This document shows positions 5,576 to 15,553 of a stretch of 64,000 bases of DNA, piece by piece. The stretch is from Escherichia coli (GTDB lineage: Bacteria; Pseudomonadota; Gammaproteobacteria; Enterobacterales; Enterobacteriaceae), in the NCBI RefSeq assembly GCF_048403405.1, contig NZ_CP183129.1; one strand, 5' to 3'. The position numbers were made by a program, and so were the translations under genes. Position 1 is the stretch's first letter, and each line of letters opens with the position of its first letter. Under the pieces are notes generated by a model. That model did no database searches. It was given only the letters and a program-made list of their open reading frames with translations, and had not been told where the DNA came from.

Positions 5576-8369
5576 TATCCGGGTCGCTTTCAGCGCCGTT
5601 GACAGGCTGACCCGGCCTGCCGAAAACGCCCGCCGCCTGATGGGGCAGTTTGGTGACTCCATCCAGCGAACGCAGGGGGCGATCAAAAATCTCGAGCGTC
5701 AGGCGCGTTCATTTGAGCGCGCCCGTGACGCTGTCAGTAAAGCGGATGCTGGCATCGTGAAAGCACGACGCCAGCTTAACGCCCTTAATCAGTTACAACG
5801 CACGGGTACAGTGCTCAGCGAAAAACAACAAAAGCTGATGCAGCAGTTAAGCACCCGGCTTGAACGCCTGAATGAATCGCGCACACGGGAAATTCAGAAA
5901 ATGCGGGAGCTTGGCGGAGAGCTGAAACGCCACGGCATTTCCCTGACAGGCAGCGATAACACCATCCAGCAGGCCATCAGACGCACCGAACAGTACAACA
6001 ACCAGCTTGAACGCGAACGGCAGGCGCTTGCGCGTGTAACGCGGGCGCGTGAGCGGTATTCGCGCGCGCAGGAAACAGCGGGAAAACTGAAAACAGGTGG
6101 TGCGCTGGCAATTGGTGCGGCAGCGGCGGGCGGCTATGCTGCCGGGCGTTTTTTGCAGCCTGCGATCGGGTTCGGCAAAGAGATGTCCCGCGTTCAGGCA
6201 CTGACGCGAATCGACCAGAACAGCCCGCAGTTTAAGGCGCTGCGTGAGCAGGCGTTAAAACTTGGCTCTGAAACGCAGTTCACCGCAGGCGATGCCGCCA
6301 GTGGACAGGCATTTCTTGCAATGGCTGGCTTCACTCCGCAGGCCATTCAGGCTGCGCTTCCCGGCGTGCTGAGCATGGCAACGGCTGGCGGTATGGATCT
6401 CGGCGAGACGGCAGATATTGGCTCAAATATCCTGACGCAGTTCGGCCTTTCTGCTGACCAGATGGACCGGGTCGGTGACACACTCACCGCAGCGTTTACC
6501 CGTACCAACACTGACCTTCGCGCACTGGGCGAAACCATGAAATATGCAGGTCCGGTGGCGGGTAAGCTGGGAATATCGCTGGAGCAGGCCGCAGCGATGG
6601 CTGGCGTGCTGGCGAATATGGGCATCAGAGGGAGTGATGCCGGGACGGCAATGCGTGCCAGCCTGGCTCGTCTGGCATCACCGCCAAAGGCGGCGGCAGA
6701 AGCTCTGAAAGAGCTGGGCGTGTCCGTCTCGGATGCCGGGGGCAAAATGCGCCCGATGGAGGATGTGCTGGCCGACCTTTATAAAGCCACCCGTAAATAC
6801 GGGGAAGTTGACCGGGTATCGTTCTTTAAGGACATTGCCGGAGAAGAGGCTTTCACATCGTTTATGGCGCTCGTTGATGCAGCGGGTGACGGTTCCTTAC
6901 CCAAACTGAGAAAAGAACTTGAAGGCGCGCGCGGTGAGGCTGAACGCACAGCAAAGGTTATGGCCAACAACCTTGACGGCGATCTGAAATCACTCGGCAG
7001 TGCATGGGAAGGGTTGCGCATCCGCATTGCAGATCTGATTGACGGTCCGCTGCGTTCTGTCACGCAGTGGCTCACGCGGGTGGTCTCAAAAGTGACGGCA
7101 CTGGCGCAGGCCCATCCGGCACTGACGCGCCAGTTACTGATAGCGGGAGGTGCACTGCTGGCGACAACAGCAACGGTTGGTTCGTTGTCTCTGGTTATTG
7201 GGGTGCTTCACGGGAAGCTGGCTACGTTACGTCTCGGTTTTTCTCTCCTGACCGGATCAATGAATGCTGTCAGGGGCCTGCCAGCACTATGGGGAATGGT
7301 GACGGGTTCCGTTTCTTTACTGGGAGGCGCTATCGGGGCGCTGATCAGTCCGGTTGGTCTTATCGTGGCTGCGCTTGCCGGAGCTGCCGTTCTTATCTGG
7401 AAATACTGGGATCCCATCAGGGCATTTTTTGCCGGGGTGTTCAGCGGGATTATGGAAAGGCTGACCCCGTTGCGCGAAACCTTTGAACGGTTTGGTCCTG
7501 TTTTTGACGCAATCGGAAGCGGGATCAGCCAGGTGTTTAACTGGTTTAAATCGCTGCTGTCACCGATGGAGTCCAGCAAGGAAACGCTGGATAAATGTAC
7601 CAGTGCTGGCGAGATATTCGGTAACGTTCTTGGCGGTGCGTTACAGCTTGTTCTGACACCTGCAAAAATGCTACTGGATACGCTGGCGTGGATACTTGAA
7701 AAACTTGGCGTCCTTCCGGATGAAGCGGAAAAGGCGCGCAAGAAAATCGAAGACGCACAGCGTGCGGCCATTCTTCAGGACAAGGTTGCCTTGCTTCAGG
7801 GGGACCTTGCGAAAATCAATCCGCCGAAGCCTGTGGAAAATGGCAATGGCACCGGAGGTGATAAACCCAAAGACAACAAACCGCTCACAGACAGCAATAC
7901 CGGGACGCTACGCAGACTCAGCAAAATTGCTGATAACACAGGTAAGCTGGTTGATGAGACGAAAAAACGCATTGGCCCTGGCGATATTGTCTTTAAGAAC
8001 CTGCCCCGCGCACTTGCTGTTCGTGGGGAGTGGCAGGAGCGGAAGATTGCGCAGGTCAGTAAGCCTGCCCCCGCAATTAATATCACACCCGTAGTCCCGG
8101 CTCCGCTGCCTCCGGCGCTGGTCCCTGTTGTTGCGGCCAGCTCCCGCCCGGTGGCGGAGGCCATACGATCGCCAGTGGCATCAGTTCCTGCAGCTTCCCG
8201 TAATCGGGAGCCTGCTGTCTCCAGATTTGGCGGTGAAATTCATGTTCATCTGCATAACGTTGTTACGCAGAATCCCCGCGAACTGGCGAAACTGGTCGGT
8301 GAAATGGTCAGGGCAGAGATGGAACGGCGCGCCCGTGCCGGACGTGGCAGTTTTTACGATAAAGATTGA
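5553..8369 (+). CDS. T: Tail tape measure protein T
   Basis: 938 aa; coiled-coil-rich N-terminal part, Gly/Ala-rich hydrophobic middle; position after E/E'. Alternative start ATG at 5562. Confidence 0.85.
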   Translation: MQIMKTLDIRVAFSAVDRLTRPAENARRLMGQFGDSIQRTQGAIKNLERQARSFERARDAVSKADAGIVKARRQLNALNQLQRTGTVLSEKQQKLMQQLSTRLERLNESRTREIQKMRELGGELKRHGISLTGSDNTIQQAIRRTEQYNNQLERERQALARVTRARERYSRAQETAGKLKTGGALAIGAAAAGGYAAGRFLQPAIGFGKEMSRVQALTRIDQNSPQFKALREQALKLGSETQFTAGDAASGQAFLAMAGFTPQAIQAALPGVLSMATAGGMDLGETADIGSNILTQFGLSADQMDRVGDTLTAAFTRTNTDLRALGETMKYAGPVAGKLGISLEQAAAMAGVLANMGIRGSDAGTAMRASLARLASPPKAAAEALKELGVSVSDAGGKMRPMEDVLADLYKATRKYGEVDRVSFFKDIAGEEAFTSFMALVDAAGDGSLPKLRKELEGARGEAERTAKVMANNLDGDLKSLGSAWEGLRIRIADLIDGPLRSVTQWLTRVVSKVTALAQAHPALTRQLLIAGGALLATTATVGSLSLVIGVLHGKLATLRLGFSLLTGSMNAVRGLPALWGMVTGSVSLLGGAIGALISPVGLIVAALAGAAVLIWKYWDPIRAFFAGVFSGIMERLTPLRETFERFGPVFDAIGSGISQVFNWFKSLLSPMESSKETLDKCTSAGEIFGNVLGGALQLVLTPAKMLLDTLAWILEKLGVLPDEAEKARKKIEDAQRAAILQDKVALLQGDLAKINPPKPVENGNGTGGDKPKDNKPLTDSNTGTLRRLSKIADNTGKLVDETKKRIGPGDIVFKNLPRALAVRGEWQERKIAQVSKPAPAINITPVVPAPLPPALVPVVAASSRPVAEAIRSPVASVPAASRNREPAVSRFGGEIHVHLHNVVTQNPRELAKLVGEMVRAEMERRARAGRGSFYDKD

Positions 8370-8883: not shown

Positions 8884-8912
8884 CCGCTAATGGTCAGATT
8901 AGCGGTTATTTT
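8884..8912. terminator. Bidirectional intrinsic terminator between convergent U and invertase genes
   Basis: Hairpin CCGCTAA-tggtcaga-TTAGCGG flanked by T-rich tracts on both strands. Confidence 0.5.
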
Positions 8913-9493
8913 GTTTCCTGACTCTTCTCTATTGTTCCGATTGATTCTCCTGCGGGGTGGTAACGATAAATCGTCGATATACCAATGCCGTAAATTATTG
9001 CCAGTTGTTTTCTGTCGTGCCCGTTTTTGATCAGCCTTGCTATTTGCTCATGCTGTTCTTTTGTCAGCTTCGGTCGACGTCCGCCTGTGCGCCCCCGTGC
9101 GCGTGCTGCCGCCAGTCCGGCCAGTGTACGTTCAACAATTAATTCACGTTCCATTTCAGCCAGGGCACCCATCACGTGGAAGAAAAAACGCCCCATTGGA
9201 GAAGATGTATCTATGCTGTCGGTCAGACTGCGAAAATTAATTCCTCGCTCCCGTAGTTCCCCGACGAGAGAAATCAGATGTTTCATGCTTCGCCCGAGGC
9301 GATCCAGTTTCCAGACAACCAGCGTGTCACCTTTTTGAAGGCGCTTTAAAGCGCGTTTTAATCCCGGTCGGTCTGTCTTTGTCCCGCTTAATTTATCTTC
9401 AAATATTTGTTCACATCCTGCACAAACAAGAGCGTTTCGTTGCAGGTCTGTATTCTGGTCATTTGTTGATACCCTTACATAGCCAATCAGCAC
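8906..9493 (-). CDS. Site-specific DNA invertase, Gin/Pin/Cin/Hin serine recombinase family
   Basis: (V)LIGYVRVSTNDQNTDLQRNALVCAGCEQIFEDKLSGTKTDRPGLKRALKRL... is near-identical in pattern to Mu Gin / e14 Pin; start trimmed to GTG at 9493. Confidence 0.9.
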   Translation of the reverse strand: MLIGYVRVSTNDQNTDLQRNALVCAGCEQIFEDKLSGTKTDRPGLKRALKRLQKGDTLVVWKLDRLGRSMKHLISLVGELRERGINFRSLTDSIDTSSPMGRFFFHVMGALAEMERELIVERTLAGLAAARARGRTGGRRPKLTKEQHEQIARLIKNGHDRKQLAIIYGIGISTIYRYHPAGESIGTIEKSQETK

Positions 9494-9547
9494 GCTGAAT
9501 CTCCCGTCCAAAAGCGCAAATCATGCCATGCAGGCCGGAAACGGCCA

Positions 9548-9580
9548 TTATCTAAAACCTCGGTTTACAGGAAACGGTAA
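9548..9580. other. gix-like inversion crossover site (right)
   Basis: TTATCTAAAACC-TC-GGTTTACAGGAA matches the gix/cix-type 26-bp site; an inverted copy lies at 12614-12646. Confidence 0.8.
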
Positions 9581-10581
9581 ACAAGGCTGGTAACGCCGTC
9601 CAAAAGACAGGCGATATCTTGTCCGGTGGGCTTACTTTTGAAAACGACTCAATCCTTGCCTGGATTCGGAATACTGACTGGGCAAAGATTGGTTTTAAAA
9701 ATGATGCCGACAGCGATACTGATTCATACATGTGGTTTGAAACAGGCGACAACGGCAATGAATATTTCAAATGGAGAAGCAAACAAAGCACCACAACAAA
9801 AGACCTGATGAATCTTAAATGGGATGCTTTGTCTGTTCTTGTTAAAGCCCTTTTCAGCAGTGAAGTAAAAATATCGACAGTCAATGCACTGAGGATATTT
9901 AATTCATCTTTTGGTGCTATTTTTCGCCGTTCTGAAGAATGCCTGCATATCATCCCGACACGAGAGAATGAGGGAGAAAATGGTGATATAGGGCCACTAC
10001 GCCCCTTTACGCTTAATCTCAGAACTGGTCGGATAAGCATGGGGCATGGTCTTGATGTTACAGGGGATATATTTGCAAACCGTTTTGCAATTAACAGTAG
10101 TACCGGCATGTGGATTCATATGCGTGACCAGAATGTTATTTTGGGACGCAATGCGGTATCCACCGATGGTGCACAGGCATTACTTCGTCAGGACCATGCT
10201 GATCGCAAATTTATGATTGGTGGGCTGGGAAATAAGCAATTTGGCATCTACATGATTAATAACTCAAGGACAGCTAATGGCACCGATGGTCAGGCGTACA
10301 TGGATAATAACGGGAACTGGCTTTGCGGTTCGCAAGTTATTCCCGGCAACTATGGCAATTTTGATTCCAGATATGTGAAAGATGTTCGACTTGGTTCACA
10401 GCAATATTATGGAGTGAACAACTGGCAAACATGGAATTTCCAGTGCCCGTCAGGTCATGTATTGTCTGGTATTAATGTTCAGGATACAGGGTCCAACTCT
10501 GCCGATAATATAGCGGGCGTTTATTACAGACCCGTTCAAAAGTATATAAATGGCACCTGGTATAATATAGCGAGCGTTTAA
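9559..10581 (+). CDS. Alternative tail-fiber C-terminal variable cassette (promoterless, silent in this orientation)
   Basis: Frame opens inside the crossover site and encodes LGLQETVN, the same peptide encoded at the other site within H; C-terminus [12 protein letters not shown] parallels the H C-terminus [12 protein letters not shown]. Confidence 0.75.
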
Positions 10582-10582
10582 T

Positions 10583-11110
10583 ATGATGCACTTAAAGAAC
10601 ATAAAAGCGGGTAATGCTAAAACACTGGAACAGTATGAGTTAACAAAGAAGCACGGAGTCATCTGGCTTTACTCTGAGGACGAAAAAAACTGGTATGAGG
10701 AAGTGAAAAACTTTCAGCCAGACACCATAAAGATTGTTTACGATGCAAATAATATTATTGTCGCCATCACTAAAGATGCCTCCACGCTTAACCCTGAAGG
10801 TTTTAGCGTCGTTGAGGTTCCAGATATTACAGCCAACCGCCGCGCTGATGATTCAGGAAAGTGGATGTTTAAGGATGGAGCTGTAGTTAAACGGATTTAT
10901 ACGGCAGACGAACAGCAACAACAGGCCGAATCACAAAAGGCCGCATTGCTTTCCGAAGCTGAATCAGTCATCCAGCCGCTGGAACGCGCTGTCAGGCTGA
11001 ATATGGCAACAGACGAGGAACGCACACGACTGGAAGCATGGGAACGCTACAGTGTTCTGGTCAGCCGTGTGGATACGGCAAATCCTGAATGGCCACAAAA
11101 GCCTGAATAA
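10583..11110 (+). CDS. Alternative tail fiber assembly protein (silent orientation)
   Basis: 175 aa; N-terminus [23 protein letters not shown] nearly identical to the active copy at 11139..11672, C-terminal part divergent. Confidence 0.8.
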
Positions 11111-11115
11111 AAATT

Positions 11116-11137
11116 AAGGCCCGCTATCGGGCCTTGT
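11116..11137. terminator. Bidirectional hairpin between the two convergent tail fiber assembly genes
   Basis: AAGGCCCG-ctat-CGGGCCTT perfect stem at the centre of the invertible segment. Confidence 0.5.
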
Positions 11138-11138
11138 C

Positions 11139-11672
11139 TCATTCAGGTTGTTCGGGAAATGTTACTGGCAGGCTGGAGGTGTCTGTAGATTCGACTTTCT
11201 GCGCATAGAGCATCCACTCGGTTAATTTTGGTTTATTCTCGTCGGAAATGATGCCCAGCCGTAGCTGTGAGTCCCATAGCTGGGTTTTATCCCTGACAAG
11301 TTGCAACAGGCTTTGCTTTTCATTTTCCGCCTGCTGCCTCTGCTCTTCCTCGGTATAAGTTCGCTTTACCACTACGCCATCTTTGAACATCCATTTACCC
11401 GAAATGTCAGCACGGCGATTTGCTGTAATATCAGGTAATTCAACGACGCTTGCGCCTTCCGGATTAATTGCTGAAACATCCTTTTCAATACAAATAATAA
11501 CGCCGTTATGGTCATAGACCATTTTTAAAGTGTCTGGCTGGAAATTCTTTTGTTCCTCATACCAGTTTTTTCCATCCTCTGAATAAAGCCATTTGATGTT
11601 AAATTGTTTCGTTAGCTGGTATTGCTCTTTTGTTTTAGGGTTGCCAGCAGTAATGTTTTTTAAGTGCATCAT
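11139..11672 (-). CDS. G: Tail fiber assembly protein (P2 G-like), active orientation
   Basis: 177 aa, immediately downstream of H. Confidence 0.85.
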
Positions 11673-11674
11673 CG

Positions 11675-13777
11675 TTAAATACTCCCCGCGTTATACCACG
11701 TCCCATTAATGCAATACTGAATTGGCCTTGCCTGAGTTGTATCAATTAATTCATCACGGTTTCCGTTAACTGAACCCGTAACGACATAACCTGACCTGTC
11801 AGACCAGCCGGGACCATTCCATGTCTGAACAGATGACAGACCGCCAAGGCGAATACCTGTAATAAACCTTGAGTTACATTCTGCCTGCGTGTATGCACCA
11901 ACATCTCCCGCTGAGGGTTTGCGGGTCGTGGTGTAAAACTCTGACCAGTCAGCTTCAAAGCCATAACCATCACGCGCTGAACGATAAAAAATGCCGCCGT
12001 TCCTGTAATTCACGCGGAACTGTACAGCAGGGCAACTCCCCGCATTCATATTGAAATGAAGAATTAACGTTGATGCGCCGGTGATTCTGGCGCAATAAAC
12101 TCCGCTGTTCCAGTTCCAGCCAACAGCTTTATCATTTCCGACAGTGCTTCCTGTTTGCCCTAAAGCAAATGCAGGTTGTTGATTTTTCGTGTTGTAGTCT
12201 CGTCGCCAGCCAGGAGCGTAAGCATCACCATGATTGATATAAGTGAATTGAGCGTTAGTAATTCCGCCACCGCTGGACGTGCTCGGCGTGGTAACGCGTA
12301 TGGTCATTGCGCCGCGAGTGCCAATAACTTCCACCACAGCACCTGCAAGACAAATATTTCCGCAACCTGTATCTGTAATGACCTTATTATTTGCATAAGC
12401 CCATGAGCCTTTGCACATCCAGTAAGGATGGTTAAATGCTCCCTGACTCTCCAGCCACGAAATAAATTGCGCGGTTGTCCAGACCTGACTATCGCCACCA
12501 ATATTCAGCCATGCGCTATATGCGCGGCAGGCACCAATATTTTTGGTGAAGGTATCTTTTCCTGGAATATCTGCGCCGTTCTGGTTTTTCTGTAATGCGC
12601 CAGAAGCCTGATTTACCGTTTCCTGTAAACCGAGGTATTCGATAACGGCAGCAACGGTCGATTTCGCAAGAATATCCCGCCCGACTTTTGTCAGGGTTGC
12701 CAGGCTGGCGACATCATTCCCCGTAAAATACGGAAACCTGTCTGCCGCAGTAGCAAGCCCGGCCAGCGCCGTCAGGGTGGCATCTTTCGGTTGCTTACCC
12801 GCAAGCGCTTTAGTCATGGTGGTCGCAAAATTCGGGTCGTTTCCCAGCGCCGCCGCTAACTCGTTCAACGTATTCAGTGCGTCAGGCGACGAGTCTACAA
12901 GTGCGGCAATCGCGGCCATCACATAAGCCGTGCTTGCGATCTGAGTATTATTAGTCCCTTTTGGCGCAGTTGGCGTTGTTGGCGTTCCGGTCAGTGCAGG
13001 ACTATTTAAGGGCGCTTTCTTGTTCGTTTCATCCATTACCGCCTTAACCGCTTTTGGCGTCGCAGCCAGCGTTTCAGATGTGCTGTTGGTGGCGCTACTG
13101 AGCTGAACTATCCCTTTTCGCGCAGTGGTAGCGTCCTGTGCGGTGTATTTGCCATTAGCCAGGTCATATGCCGCCTTAACAGCCTTTGGCGTTGCCGCAA
13201 GCGTTTCAGACGTGCTGTTAGTGGCGCTGCTAAGTTGAACAAAGCCTTTTGCGGTCAGCGAGGCGTCCGGGTGACGTCGTGAGTGTTCATGCTCTTTCAG
13301 TTTGTCATCCACGTAATCCACTGTGGCCATCACCATGGTGTTATCCACGGTAAGCGCCACGGTGGCAGTGCTGGATACGGTCAGAATGGTGCGAAATGTT
13401 TGTGCACGTCCTGACCCTTCGGCAACGGCTGGCTTGTAACTTTCGGCAGTATTGCCTACTGCGATTAAATCGCCGTGCTCATCAAACACACCAATTTCCC
13501 GGATCCAGAATCCGCCCGTTTCTGGAGGAATAACCAGCTCCGCAATAATGCGGTTCTGATGTGTTGCGTCCAGTATGACGCGATTAACAGTGTGTCGCCA
13601 CACCTCATGCACCAGACGGGTCTGCTTACTGTCTGGTGTGGGCAACGTGCCGCCACCGTCGCCCACGGCCATATGAGTCAGGCGGACAGGCTTACCATCT
13701 GGCGCGGCTGCCTGAGCTAATTTTTTTGCACCCGTATCGGTGATAACGGTTTTAAATTTTCGTGTTGTGGTACTCAT
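11675..13777 (-). CDS. H: Tail fiber protein H (constant N-terminal part 13777-12634, variable C-terminal part inside the invertible segment)
   Basis: 700 aa; conserved P2 H-like N-terminus, internal tandem repeat [22 protein letters not shown] x2; crossover site within the coding sequence. Confidence 0.9.
12614..12646. other. gix-like inversion crossover site (left), inside H
   Basis: TTACCGTTTCCTGTAAACCGAGGTATTCGATAA is the reverse complement of the 9548-9580 site, with 31 of 33 positions matching. Confidence 0.8.
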
Positions 13778-13779
13778 GC

Positions 13780-14310
13780 TTAATCGTCCGGATAAATGGT
13801 AATGACTTCACCGTCGTAAGTTGCTGCCGCCGCGAAAATATCTCCCGGGATCTCCTGAATGATATTCAGCCCTGTCATGTGGCGGCTGACCGGGCGGGCA
13901 TCAGCAATCAACCGCTCCATTTCCAGATACATTTCCTCCGTCACGCCACTGTCCAGCGTGCCGACTTCAACGGTAAATGTTCCCGGTTCTCCGCCGAACT
14001 CCCACCACTCAGACACGCGAATGAGGTATCCCAGCGGCTCAATGGCCCGGCGCAGTGCGCTGATGGTCCCTTTGTGTCGGTGTATCAGCCATGCATCACG
14101 AATCACCTGTCGCTTTGTCTCTTCCGGCCAGTTGCGATCCCAGCGGTCAACGGAAAATGCCCAGGCGAGATAAGGCAGCAAATGCACCGGGCAGGTGTCC
14201 GGTGACCACAGCGTGTTGAGGTCTACCGGGATGTCTGTAATGCGCGCTCCGACAGCTTCGGCGCAACGCATGAAACGGCTGGCTGATGGCGGTAACAGTG
14301 AATTACTCAT
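13780..14310 (-). CDS. I: Baseplate/tail protein I
   Basis: ORF track frame 13780..14343; start trimmed to MSNSLLPP as in P2 gpI. Confidence 0.8.
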   Translation of the reverse strand: MSNSLLPPSASRFMRCAEAVGARITDIPVDLNTLWSPDTCPVHLLPYLAWAFSVDRWDRNWPEETKRQVIRDAWLIHRHKGTISALRRAIEPLGYLIRVSEWWEFGGEPGTFTVEVGTLDSGVTEEMYLEMERLIADARPVSRHMTGLNIIQEIPGDIFAAAATYDGEVITIYPDD

Positions 14311-15199
14311 TGCGCCCACCTTCGCTGATGGTGAATGACTCACAGCGCGCCGCCTGTATGTCGCTGATGGCCAGATTCTGTGTGGGTTCGATTATCTCCA
14401 CGCGTTGCACACCGTGCACATGCAGTGCGGCAGCAATGGCGGACAACGCCACGTCCTGACCGATAAGCCCCTGCTCAGCCAGCCACTTCCTGAACGACGA
14501 TTCAGCCGCCGCCAGAATAGGTTCGGATTCCGGACCGGGGTAAAAGTACAGTTTTGCATTCAGCCGCCATGTCACGATTCTGGCGCTCTGTACGGTCAGG
14601 CGGTCGGCCACCGGGCGGGTATCCTCTGCATTCAGAACGGCGCGAACGGTATTAAGCAACGCCTCCGTTGCTGTGCCGTCGCCTTCAGTGGACAGGATGG
14701 AAACCGTCACATTTGCCGGAGACGGACTGATAGCCCGCGCATCACGCACCAGACCGCTGGCGCTGCGGGCAAAATACTCGTATGCACCTGACGGGCCAGC
14801 AACACTCAGGCCGTCGTACGCCCGCTGCGCCCGCAGTCTCAGCGAGGTGTCGCTCTCCATCACCGCGTCGGTGGTATCCGTTGCCGGAGTGATAACCAGG
14901 CGCTTTGTGTTCATATTGCCCGCGAGGTTGTCCAGGTCTGTCCCGGCGCTGTGGCTTAACATGCAGGCGCGTGCCCCCTCGTTAACCCGCTGGCGTAACA
15001 GCATTTCACGAAACGACATGGTTTGAGCGATAACGTTCAGGGGTTCCGATTCCAGCTCCAGCGCGGCGGAAACGGCTTCACGCTGTTCGGCGGGATAGGA
15101 CGCAATCATCATGGCTTTTGTGTCAGCCAGAATTGCTTCAAAGTCAGGCTCCGCGATGATGGCGGGTTCCGGTAACTGGGAAAGGTCAACGGCGGGCAT
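14303..15199 (-). CDS. J: Baseplate assembly protein J
   Basis: 298 aa; P2 gpJ-like, overlaps the I start. Confidence 0.85.
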   Translation of the reverse strand: MPAVDLSQLPEPAIIAEPDFEAILADTKAMMIASYPAEQREAVSAALELESEPLNVIAQTMSFREMLLRQRVNEGARACMLSHSAGTDLDNLAGNMNTKRLVITPATDTTDAVMESDTSLRLRAQRAYDGLSVAGPSGAYEYFARSASGLVRDARAISPSPANVTVSILSTEGDGTATEALLNTVRAVLNAEDTRPVADRLTVQSARIVTWRLNAKLYFYPGPESEPILAAAESSFRKWLAEQGLIGQDVALSAIAAALHVHGVQRVEIIEPTQNLAISDIQAARCESFTISEGGRNE

Positions 15200-15202
15200 G
15201 AT

Positions 15203-15553
15203 TTACTCCCTCAGCGTGATGGTTAACTCAATATTCTGCATGGTCTGCATGACAGTGCCCGACAGCGTCACCCCGGCGCGGCCTCCCGCTTTCCAGACAA
15301 CGTCGATGGCATCCAGGGCAATGCGGGGTTCCCATCGTGTCAGCGCAATCACGGCAGCACTCATGCATTGCAGACGCGTGGTGTTATTCATGGGTTCGTC
15401 AATCAAATCAGGCACAAGGCTGCCATATTCCCGTCGCATAACCCGGCTGGCCAGCGGGGTGGTCAGGATGTCCCTGACTGACTGTTTCAGGTGCTCCATA
15501 TCGTTCAGGTTTCCCGTTCCGTCCGGGTTCATTCCTGTGTAGCGGGTTGTCAC
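15203..15553 (-). CDS. W: Baseplate protein W (gp25-like)
   Basis: 116 aa, position between V and J. Confidence 0.85.
   Translation of the reverse strand: MTTRYTGMNPDGTGNLNDMEHLKQSVRDILTTPLASRVMRREYGSLVPDLIDEPMNNTTRLQCMSAAVIALTRWEPRIALDAIDVVWKAGGRAGVTLSGTVMQTMQNIELTITLRE

Follow-up and report, generated by a model that had tools for sequence, protein, structure and literature searches.

The Pfam family PF03406 (Phage_fiber_2, "Phage tail fibre repeat") is a curated repeat family that was first noted in lambda Stf and is also present in K-12 StfR and in the collagen-like fibre proteins of EHEC prophages. The motif is found in P2-like, Mu, P1, lambda-like, and Stx phages, and in the lambda-like and Stx phages it is usually single and only 70–75% identical. 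In a 2012 paper on the fibre proteins of EHEC prophages, it was treated as a conserved domain whose structure and function were unknown (PMC3368898). PDB sequence searches returned the motif only in the Mu S constructs 5yvq, 8ju3, and 9ki1, and the paper on the Mu virion builds only "the N-terminus" of gp49, without a residue range (PMC11915804). For P2 gpH, residue 370 was chosen as the best junction for a P2–P1(S') chimera (PMC9942202). A literature search found no paper on copy-number variation of the PF03406 repeat in gpH.

We analysed a direct repeat within a tail-fibre gene of Escherichia coli contig NZ_CP183129.1, using a stretch of 64,000 nt that is referred to as the window. The repeat is an already known and ordinary feature, namely PF03406: the HMM match lies far above threshold, the period (approximately 42–44 aa) and the tail-fibre context agree with the family, and nothing essential differs here. 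We consider it very likely that the repeats encode the conserved cores of two adjacent 44-residue PF03406 modules, and that these belong to the proximal, constant portion of a P2 gpH-type fibre carried by a P88-like (Xuanwuvirus) prophage.

The fibre gene and its two repeat units

The gene, its domains, and the repeat arms are as follows.

11675–13777, minus strand: tail-fibre gene of the P2 gpH type, 700 aa (ORF with Pfam PF12571, PF03406 twice, and gp37_C; 56% identity to P2 gpH)
13319–13762, minus strand: N-terminal baseplate-attachment domain, aa 6–153 (PF12571 Phage_tail_fib, 181.7 bits, E = 1.1e-53)
13136–13267, minus strand: Phage_fiber_2 unit 1, aa 171–214 (best PF03406 stretch, aa 173–213)
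13004–13135, minus strand: Phage_fiber_2 unit 2, aa 215–258 (second PF03406 stretch; local phmmer match, aa 215–254)
12650–13003, minus strand: conserved post-repeat region, aa 259–376 (approximately 95% nucleotide identity to P88; amino acids nearly identical to P2 gpH)
11678–12646, minus strand: C-terminal receptor-binding part of the Mu S' type, aa 378–700 (PDB 8ju3, Mu tail fibre S/S', 720 bits)
13171–13250, no strand: DNA repeat arm over the core of unit 1 (repeat family D1, 84% identical to the other arm)
13039–13118, no strand: DNA repeat arm over the core of unit 2 (repeat family D1, reference copy)

The original prediction had named this gene tail-fibre gene H, and its N-terminal PF12571 domain, its similarity to P2 gpH, and its neighbours bear this out; the strand had to be added, the gene lying on the minus strand. 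Tail_P2_I and Baseplate_J, the homologues of P2 I and J, are immediately upstream and a Caudo_TAP gene is downstream, in the same order as in P2 and P88. PF03406 matched the ORF with 140.5 bits against a cut-off of 22 (E = 1.2e-41) in two stretches, the best of which covers profile positions 1–41 of 42, and the two 44-aa units are directly adjacent in the protein (aa 171–214 and aa 215–258). The gp37_C match near the C-terminus of the ORF was weak. The post-repeat region (aa 259–376) also matched a tail collar fibre chain, 9d93, in the PDB sequence search (E = 1.9e-10).

Identity to P2 gpH is 56% over the whole protein and almost complete over aa 150–386, while the distal receptor-binding part is of another type, Mu S'. 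This part showed few differences from PDB 8ju3 across 323 aa, and at the nucleotide level it is 94–97% identical to the S' of Mu, D108, and P7. By these alignments, the fibre gene appears to be a mosaic of a P2 gpH-type proximal part and a Mu S'-type C-terminus.

At the DNA level, a repeat search of positions 11500–15500 identified two arms of 80 nt each (13039–13118 and 13171–13250), 84% identical and spaced 132 nt from start to start. In a sliding comparison of the same region, the 67 of 80 matches at offset 132 were the top score of any pair of 80-nt windows, whereas the best pair in 60 shuffles reached 40.9 ± 0.9 matches (maximum 43). The direct repeat is real and far above chance; the remaining repeat families in these 4 kb are just 15–29 nt. 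The pair at 13041–13110 and 13171–13240 that had been described earlier falls inside the arms found here, and the duplicated peptide reported with it is indeed a 22-aa sequence coded twice, 44 residues apart (aa 181–202, window 13172–13237, and aa 225–246, window 13040–13105, both on the minus strand). Its description as a tandem repeat of about 70 bp holds for a direct repeat, and the head-to-tail 70-bp unit has to be replaced by a period of 132 nt (44 aa) consisting of a 22–26-aa core and a diverged linker. Over their full 132 nt, the two units are 66% identical and share no exact run longer than 11 nt. Tandem Repeats Finder (11500–14000) did not call the pair, because its copies are too few and its linkers too diverged. 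What the program did report was an unrelated 9-nt tandem array, TTGGCGTTG, present 2.9 times at 12961–12986. This array follows closely downstream of the repeat units in the fibre gene, within the region that codes for a 10-aa stretch.

The distal end of the gene, from codon 377 on, lies inside a predicted invertible segment of the Mu G / P1 C type, which spans window positions 8906–12649 including the invertase.

12588–12649, no strand: inverted-repeat arm in H, codons 377–397 (presumed crossover site; pair I3, 62 nt, 79% complementary)
9544–9605, no strand: other inverted-repeat arm (62 nt, pair I3)
11139–11672, minus strand: tail-fibre assembly gene paired with the expressed C-terminus (PF02413 Caudo_TAP, E = 1.9e-36)
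10583–11110, plus strand: second, opposed tail-fibre assembly gene (PF02413, E = 8.5e-38)
9556–10581, plus strand: promoterless alternative fibre C-terminus of the Mu S / P2 H type (PF21446)
8906–9511, minus strand: serine invertase, 201 aa (PF00239 Resolvase, E = 1.5e-50; PF02796 HTH_7)

The two arms have a perfect 25-nt core in common, ACCTCGGTTTACAGGAAACGGTAAA, and between them are two opposed sets of a C-terminus and a Caudo_TAP assembly gene. The frame of the alternative C-terminus opens just inside the inverted repeat (NLGLQETVN...), and in RefSeq it is a 'phage tail protein' that lacks the N-terminus. In the orientation found in the window, the Mu S'-type tip is predicted to be expressed. 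The natural inversion junction, at approximately residue 377, lies a few residues beyond the junction engineered at residue 370 of P2 gpH (PMC9942202).

In public records, E. coli chromosome NZ_CM125670 matches the 501 nt surrounding the repeat at 100% identity, and this record annotates the fibre gene as 'phage tail protein'. When that locus was set against the window from position 6881, it started in register and then showed many position-by-position mismatches, presumably owing to an indel that shifts the register; the identity is established for the 501-nt query. Most homologues among the 120 best protein matches are labelled 'partial' and are approximately 420–600 aa long. Their ends probably coincide with breaks of short-read contigs in the invertible segment or the repeat region, so that public protein sets probably under-represent full-length alleles.

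Selection on the core and copy number among relatives

The two copies in the window differ at 10 nucleotides over the 22 core codons, and all 10 differences are synonymous, with 0 non-synonymous. As synonymous changes make up 25% of the possible single-base changes in the core, the probability of an all-synonymous pattern is approximately 1e-6. Unit 1 of the window and unit 1 of P2 encode an identical peptide with 13 of the 22 codons different, where 14.6 would be expected at synonymous saturation. Judged by these codon comparisons, the core is evidently conserved as protein, under very strong purifying selection. The near-saturation of synonymous sites indicates that the duplication in the window is old, and the invariance of the core peptide despite it points to a structurally important module. 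Across paralogous and orthologous units together, peptide conservation of this 22-aa Ser/Thr/Ala-rich core was unusually strict.

The original prediction had proposed comparing repeat number among relatives, and this comparison revealed orthologues with 1, 2, 3, 4, or 6 units. E. coli K99B carries one unit, the window and P2 carry two, P88 carries three, and two E. coli contigs carry four (L005) and six (L004). The steps among orthologues were always exactly 44 aa (132 nt), and in a DNA alignment of the window, P88, K99B, and P2 the differences appeared as single in-register gaps of 132 or 264 nt. The best 120 protein matches contained 2–6 units, at positions 194, 238, 282, 326, 370, and 414, a sample biased by the bit-score ranking, which favours many-copy proteins.

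Isolated P2-like phages span one to four units. Two units were present in P2, Wphi, pro147, R18C, HQ103, and Shae_phiSM; three in P88, 520873, 503458, P884B11, fiAA91-ss, PSP3, and STYP1; and four in vB_EcoM-12474, P22H4, 9W, and several Yersinia phages, while some P2-like phages and Mu have one. Phages sharing the backbone of the window (95–97% identity) have two or three. Assembly artefacts are an unlikely source of these differences in count, since they are already seen between complete phage genomes. An exhaustive HMMER scan of 1.84 billion cluster representatives (50% identity) matched 2,308 proteins, in some cases in over 10 stretches, and the modal unit spacing among 150 diverse matching representatives was 44 aa. 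Two P1-like records contain 11 and 15 unit copies (Escherichia phage vB_EcoM-673R5, ON470615.2, and ON470617.2); the annotation of ON470615.2 splits the fibre region into several short CDSs, perhaps as a result of frameshifts or misassembly of the array.

Unit positions are orthologous between phages, with first units clustering at 83–93% and last units at 86–97% nucleotide identity, and internal units forming a third group that is nearer to the first units. P2 units 1 and 2 have a longest exact common run of 20 nt. In the single unit of K99B (NZ_CM135133, 2599–4854), every informative site 5' of this run matches P2 unit 1, the switch lies around the run, and after a brief transition almost all such sites agree with P2 unit 2. 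On either side of the repeat, K99B is 97% and 99% identical to P2. The one-unit allele of K99B reads as a clean chimera of P2 units 1 and 2, that is, a natural deletion junction, and such a chimeric unit is what unequal crossover or slippage deletion between cores would produce. A deletion in the K99B lineage is the parsimonious direction, because the two P2 units are approximately 62% identical to each other and the flanks are nearly identical to those of K99B.

The original prediction had also held that the repeats can mediate length variation by recombination. The K99B junction and the unit counts of relatives agree with this, with a caveat for the allele in the window. Alleles with 3–6 units have exact runs of 20–48 nt between units (48 nt between units 1 and 2 of P88), whereas the window units share only 11 nt exactly, which makes them ill suited to homologous recombination at present. 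The allele in the window should be comparatively stable, with further change rare and no recombination hot spot.

A single deletion does not cleanly derive this allele from a P88-type three-unit allele or from a four-unit allele, the informative sites being of mixed affinity and in many cases private. Identity to P88 is 85–90% in the repeat region, versus 97.8% and 94.6% in the flanks, and this greater divergence suggests a history of patchy recombination.

Proposed role of the modules and competing explanations

In the proposed reading, the modules sit between the baseplate-attachment domain and a conserved stalk leading to the exchangeable receptor-binding C-terminus, and are protein-level structural units under very strong purifying selection. 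Their number varies from 1 to 6 among orthologues in exact 132-nt steps, and at least one unit was lost when the cores recombined unequally or slipped. Each module would add a fixed increment to the trimeric fibre, so that copy number may set its length or reach. The two modules in the window are an old, synonymously diverged pair corresponding to the first and last units. We place the repeat in the shaft on account of its position only, and the terms 'shaft spacer' and 'length increment' are drawn from position and modularity.

Structure prediction gave unusable models. An AlphaFold2 monomer of aa 150–345 with an alignment of 28 sequences had a mean pLDDT of 41 and a pTM of 0.17, and a pseudo-trimer of three copies of aa 150–264, joined by (GGGGS)5 and run with a matched alignment, had a pLDDT of 31. 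Intertwined trimeric fibres often yield poor AlphaFold models. In each unit, 11 residues are predicted with low confidence to form a short helix.

A possible alternative, compatible with the reading above, is that the cores serve mainly as homology linkers, or mosaic joints, for the exchange of fibre modules between unrelated phages, with length variation as a side effect. In diverse representatives, unrelated modules directly follow the last core (...AATPKAVK), including a P2-type module of 18 aa, the Mu/P1-type YDNAEKRLQKDQNGADIP, the lambda Stf-type NDNANGRVPSxRKVNG, and others; the motif is also spread over P2-like, Mu, P1, lambda-like, and Stx phages, and the lower identity of the repeat region than of its flanks to P88 is as expected of a recombination patch. 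However, low nucleotide identity at synonymous sites between the cores of different phages limits homologous exchange, and the strict conservation of the peptide argues that it has a structural role of its own.

It is unlikely, though equally compatible with the structural reading, that the core forms a binding surface and no passive spacer, through which the folded-back fibre docks on the sheath or baseplate or contacts an assembly factor or a surface glycan, and that copy number changes avidity instead of length. The extreme purifying selection on the 22-aa Ser/Thr/Ala-rich peptide would fit such a surface, as would the Mu fibres docked along the sheath (PMC11915804). However, residues at the trimer interface of fibre shafts can be as conserved, and alleles with one to six units all seem to be maintained in phages.

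We regard as rather doubtful an adaptive elaboration in which copy number is a length or avidity dial that fits fibre reach to host surface thickness and the synonymous divergence of the first and last units was selected as anti-collapse recoding. If so, the recoding may shield a minimal two-module fibre from recombinational collapse, and the internal modules of 3–6-unit alleles, with their 20–48-nt runs, may be the expandable part.

It is highly improbable that the pair is a recent tandem duplication forming an active hot spot, at which fibre length would change frequently in the prophage through RecA recombination or replication slippage. Efficient RecA recombination in E. coli usually needs roughly 20–30 nt. 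Relatives do differ in copy number and multi-copy alleles have exact runs of 20–48 nt between units, but the arms in the window are 84% identical over 80 nt and 66% over 132 nt, their longest exact run of 11 nt is below the RecA requirement, and the near-saturated synonymous sites mark the duplication as old. It is barely credible that the repeat functions at the DNA or RNA level, for example in protein binding, in recombination or as a folded RNA, and only happens to overlap the coding sequence, since nothing beyond the existence of the direct repeat was found in favour of this, whereas conservation lies in the peptide and not in the nucleotides (all 10 core differences synonymous; orthologous cores encoding one and the same peptide although 13 of 22 codons differ), the match to a protein family is very strong, and the opposite strand has no ORF of at least 60 aa across 13041–13240. 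No tRNA genes were found in the window.

Comparison with P2, P88-type phages, and Mu

Since the motif is curated and the textbook orthologue, P2 gpH, has an identical two-unit layout, the locus has little significance beyond correct annotation. Added here are the range of 1 to 6 units in exact 44-aa steps, one natural recombination junction, and the invariance of the core peptide at nearly saturated synonymous sites. These could be of interest to those engineering P2, P4, or pyocin fibres who wish to change length without touching the receptor-binding tip.

P2 gpH (NP_046775) likewise follows J and I and precedes an assembly gene, shares the N-terminal domain family, and contains two 44-aa units side by side that have this core peptide and are 97.7% identical in amino acids to the query unit. 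It differs in its N-terminal domain, which is clearly less conserved than aa 150–386, and in its C-terminus, which in P2 is fixed, of the Mu S type, and without an invertase, whereas in the window it is of the Mu S' type and lies within the invertible segment. Mu S/S' (gp49 and gp52; PDB 5yvq, 8ju3, 9ki1) has a Phage_fiber_2 unit in its constant part (aa 111–151), and the arrangement here resembles the Mu G segment in that the variable C-terminus is almost identical to S', inverted repeats occur within the fibre gene, and a serine invertase is adjacent. Mu differs in having another N-terminal domain and one unit instead of two, and in being a transposable rather than a P2-like phage. Xuanwuvirus P88 and the E. 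coli phages 520873, 503458, and P884B11 share 95–97% nucleotide identity with the window over approximately 22–25 kb (the late region, in the first 25 kb of the window) and possess the same invertible fibre segment; their fibre genes carry three units, compared with two in the window, the difference being a single in-register gap of 132 nt.
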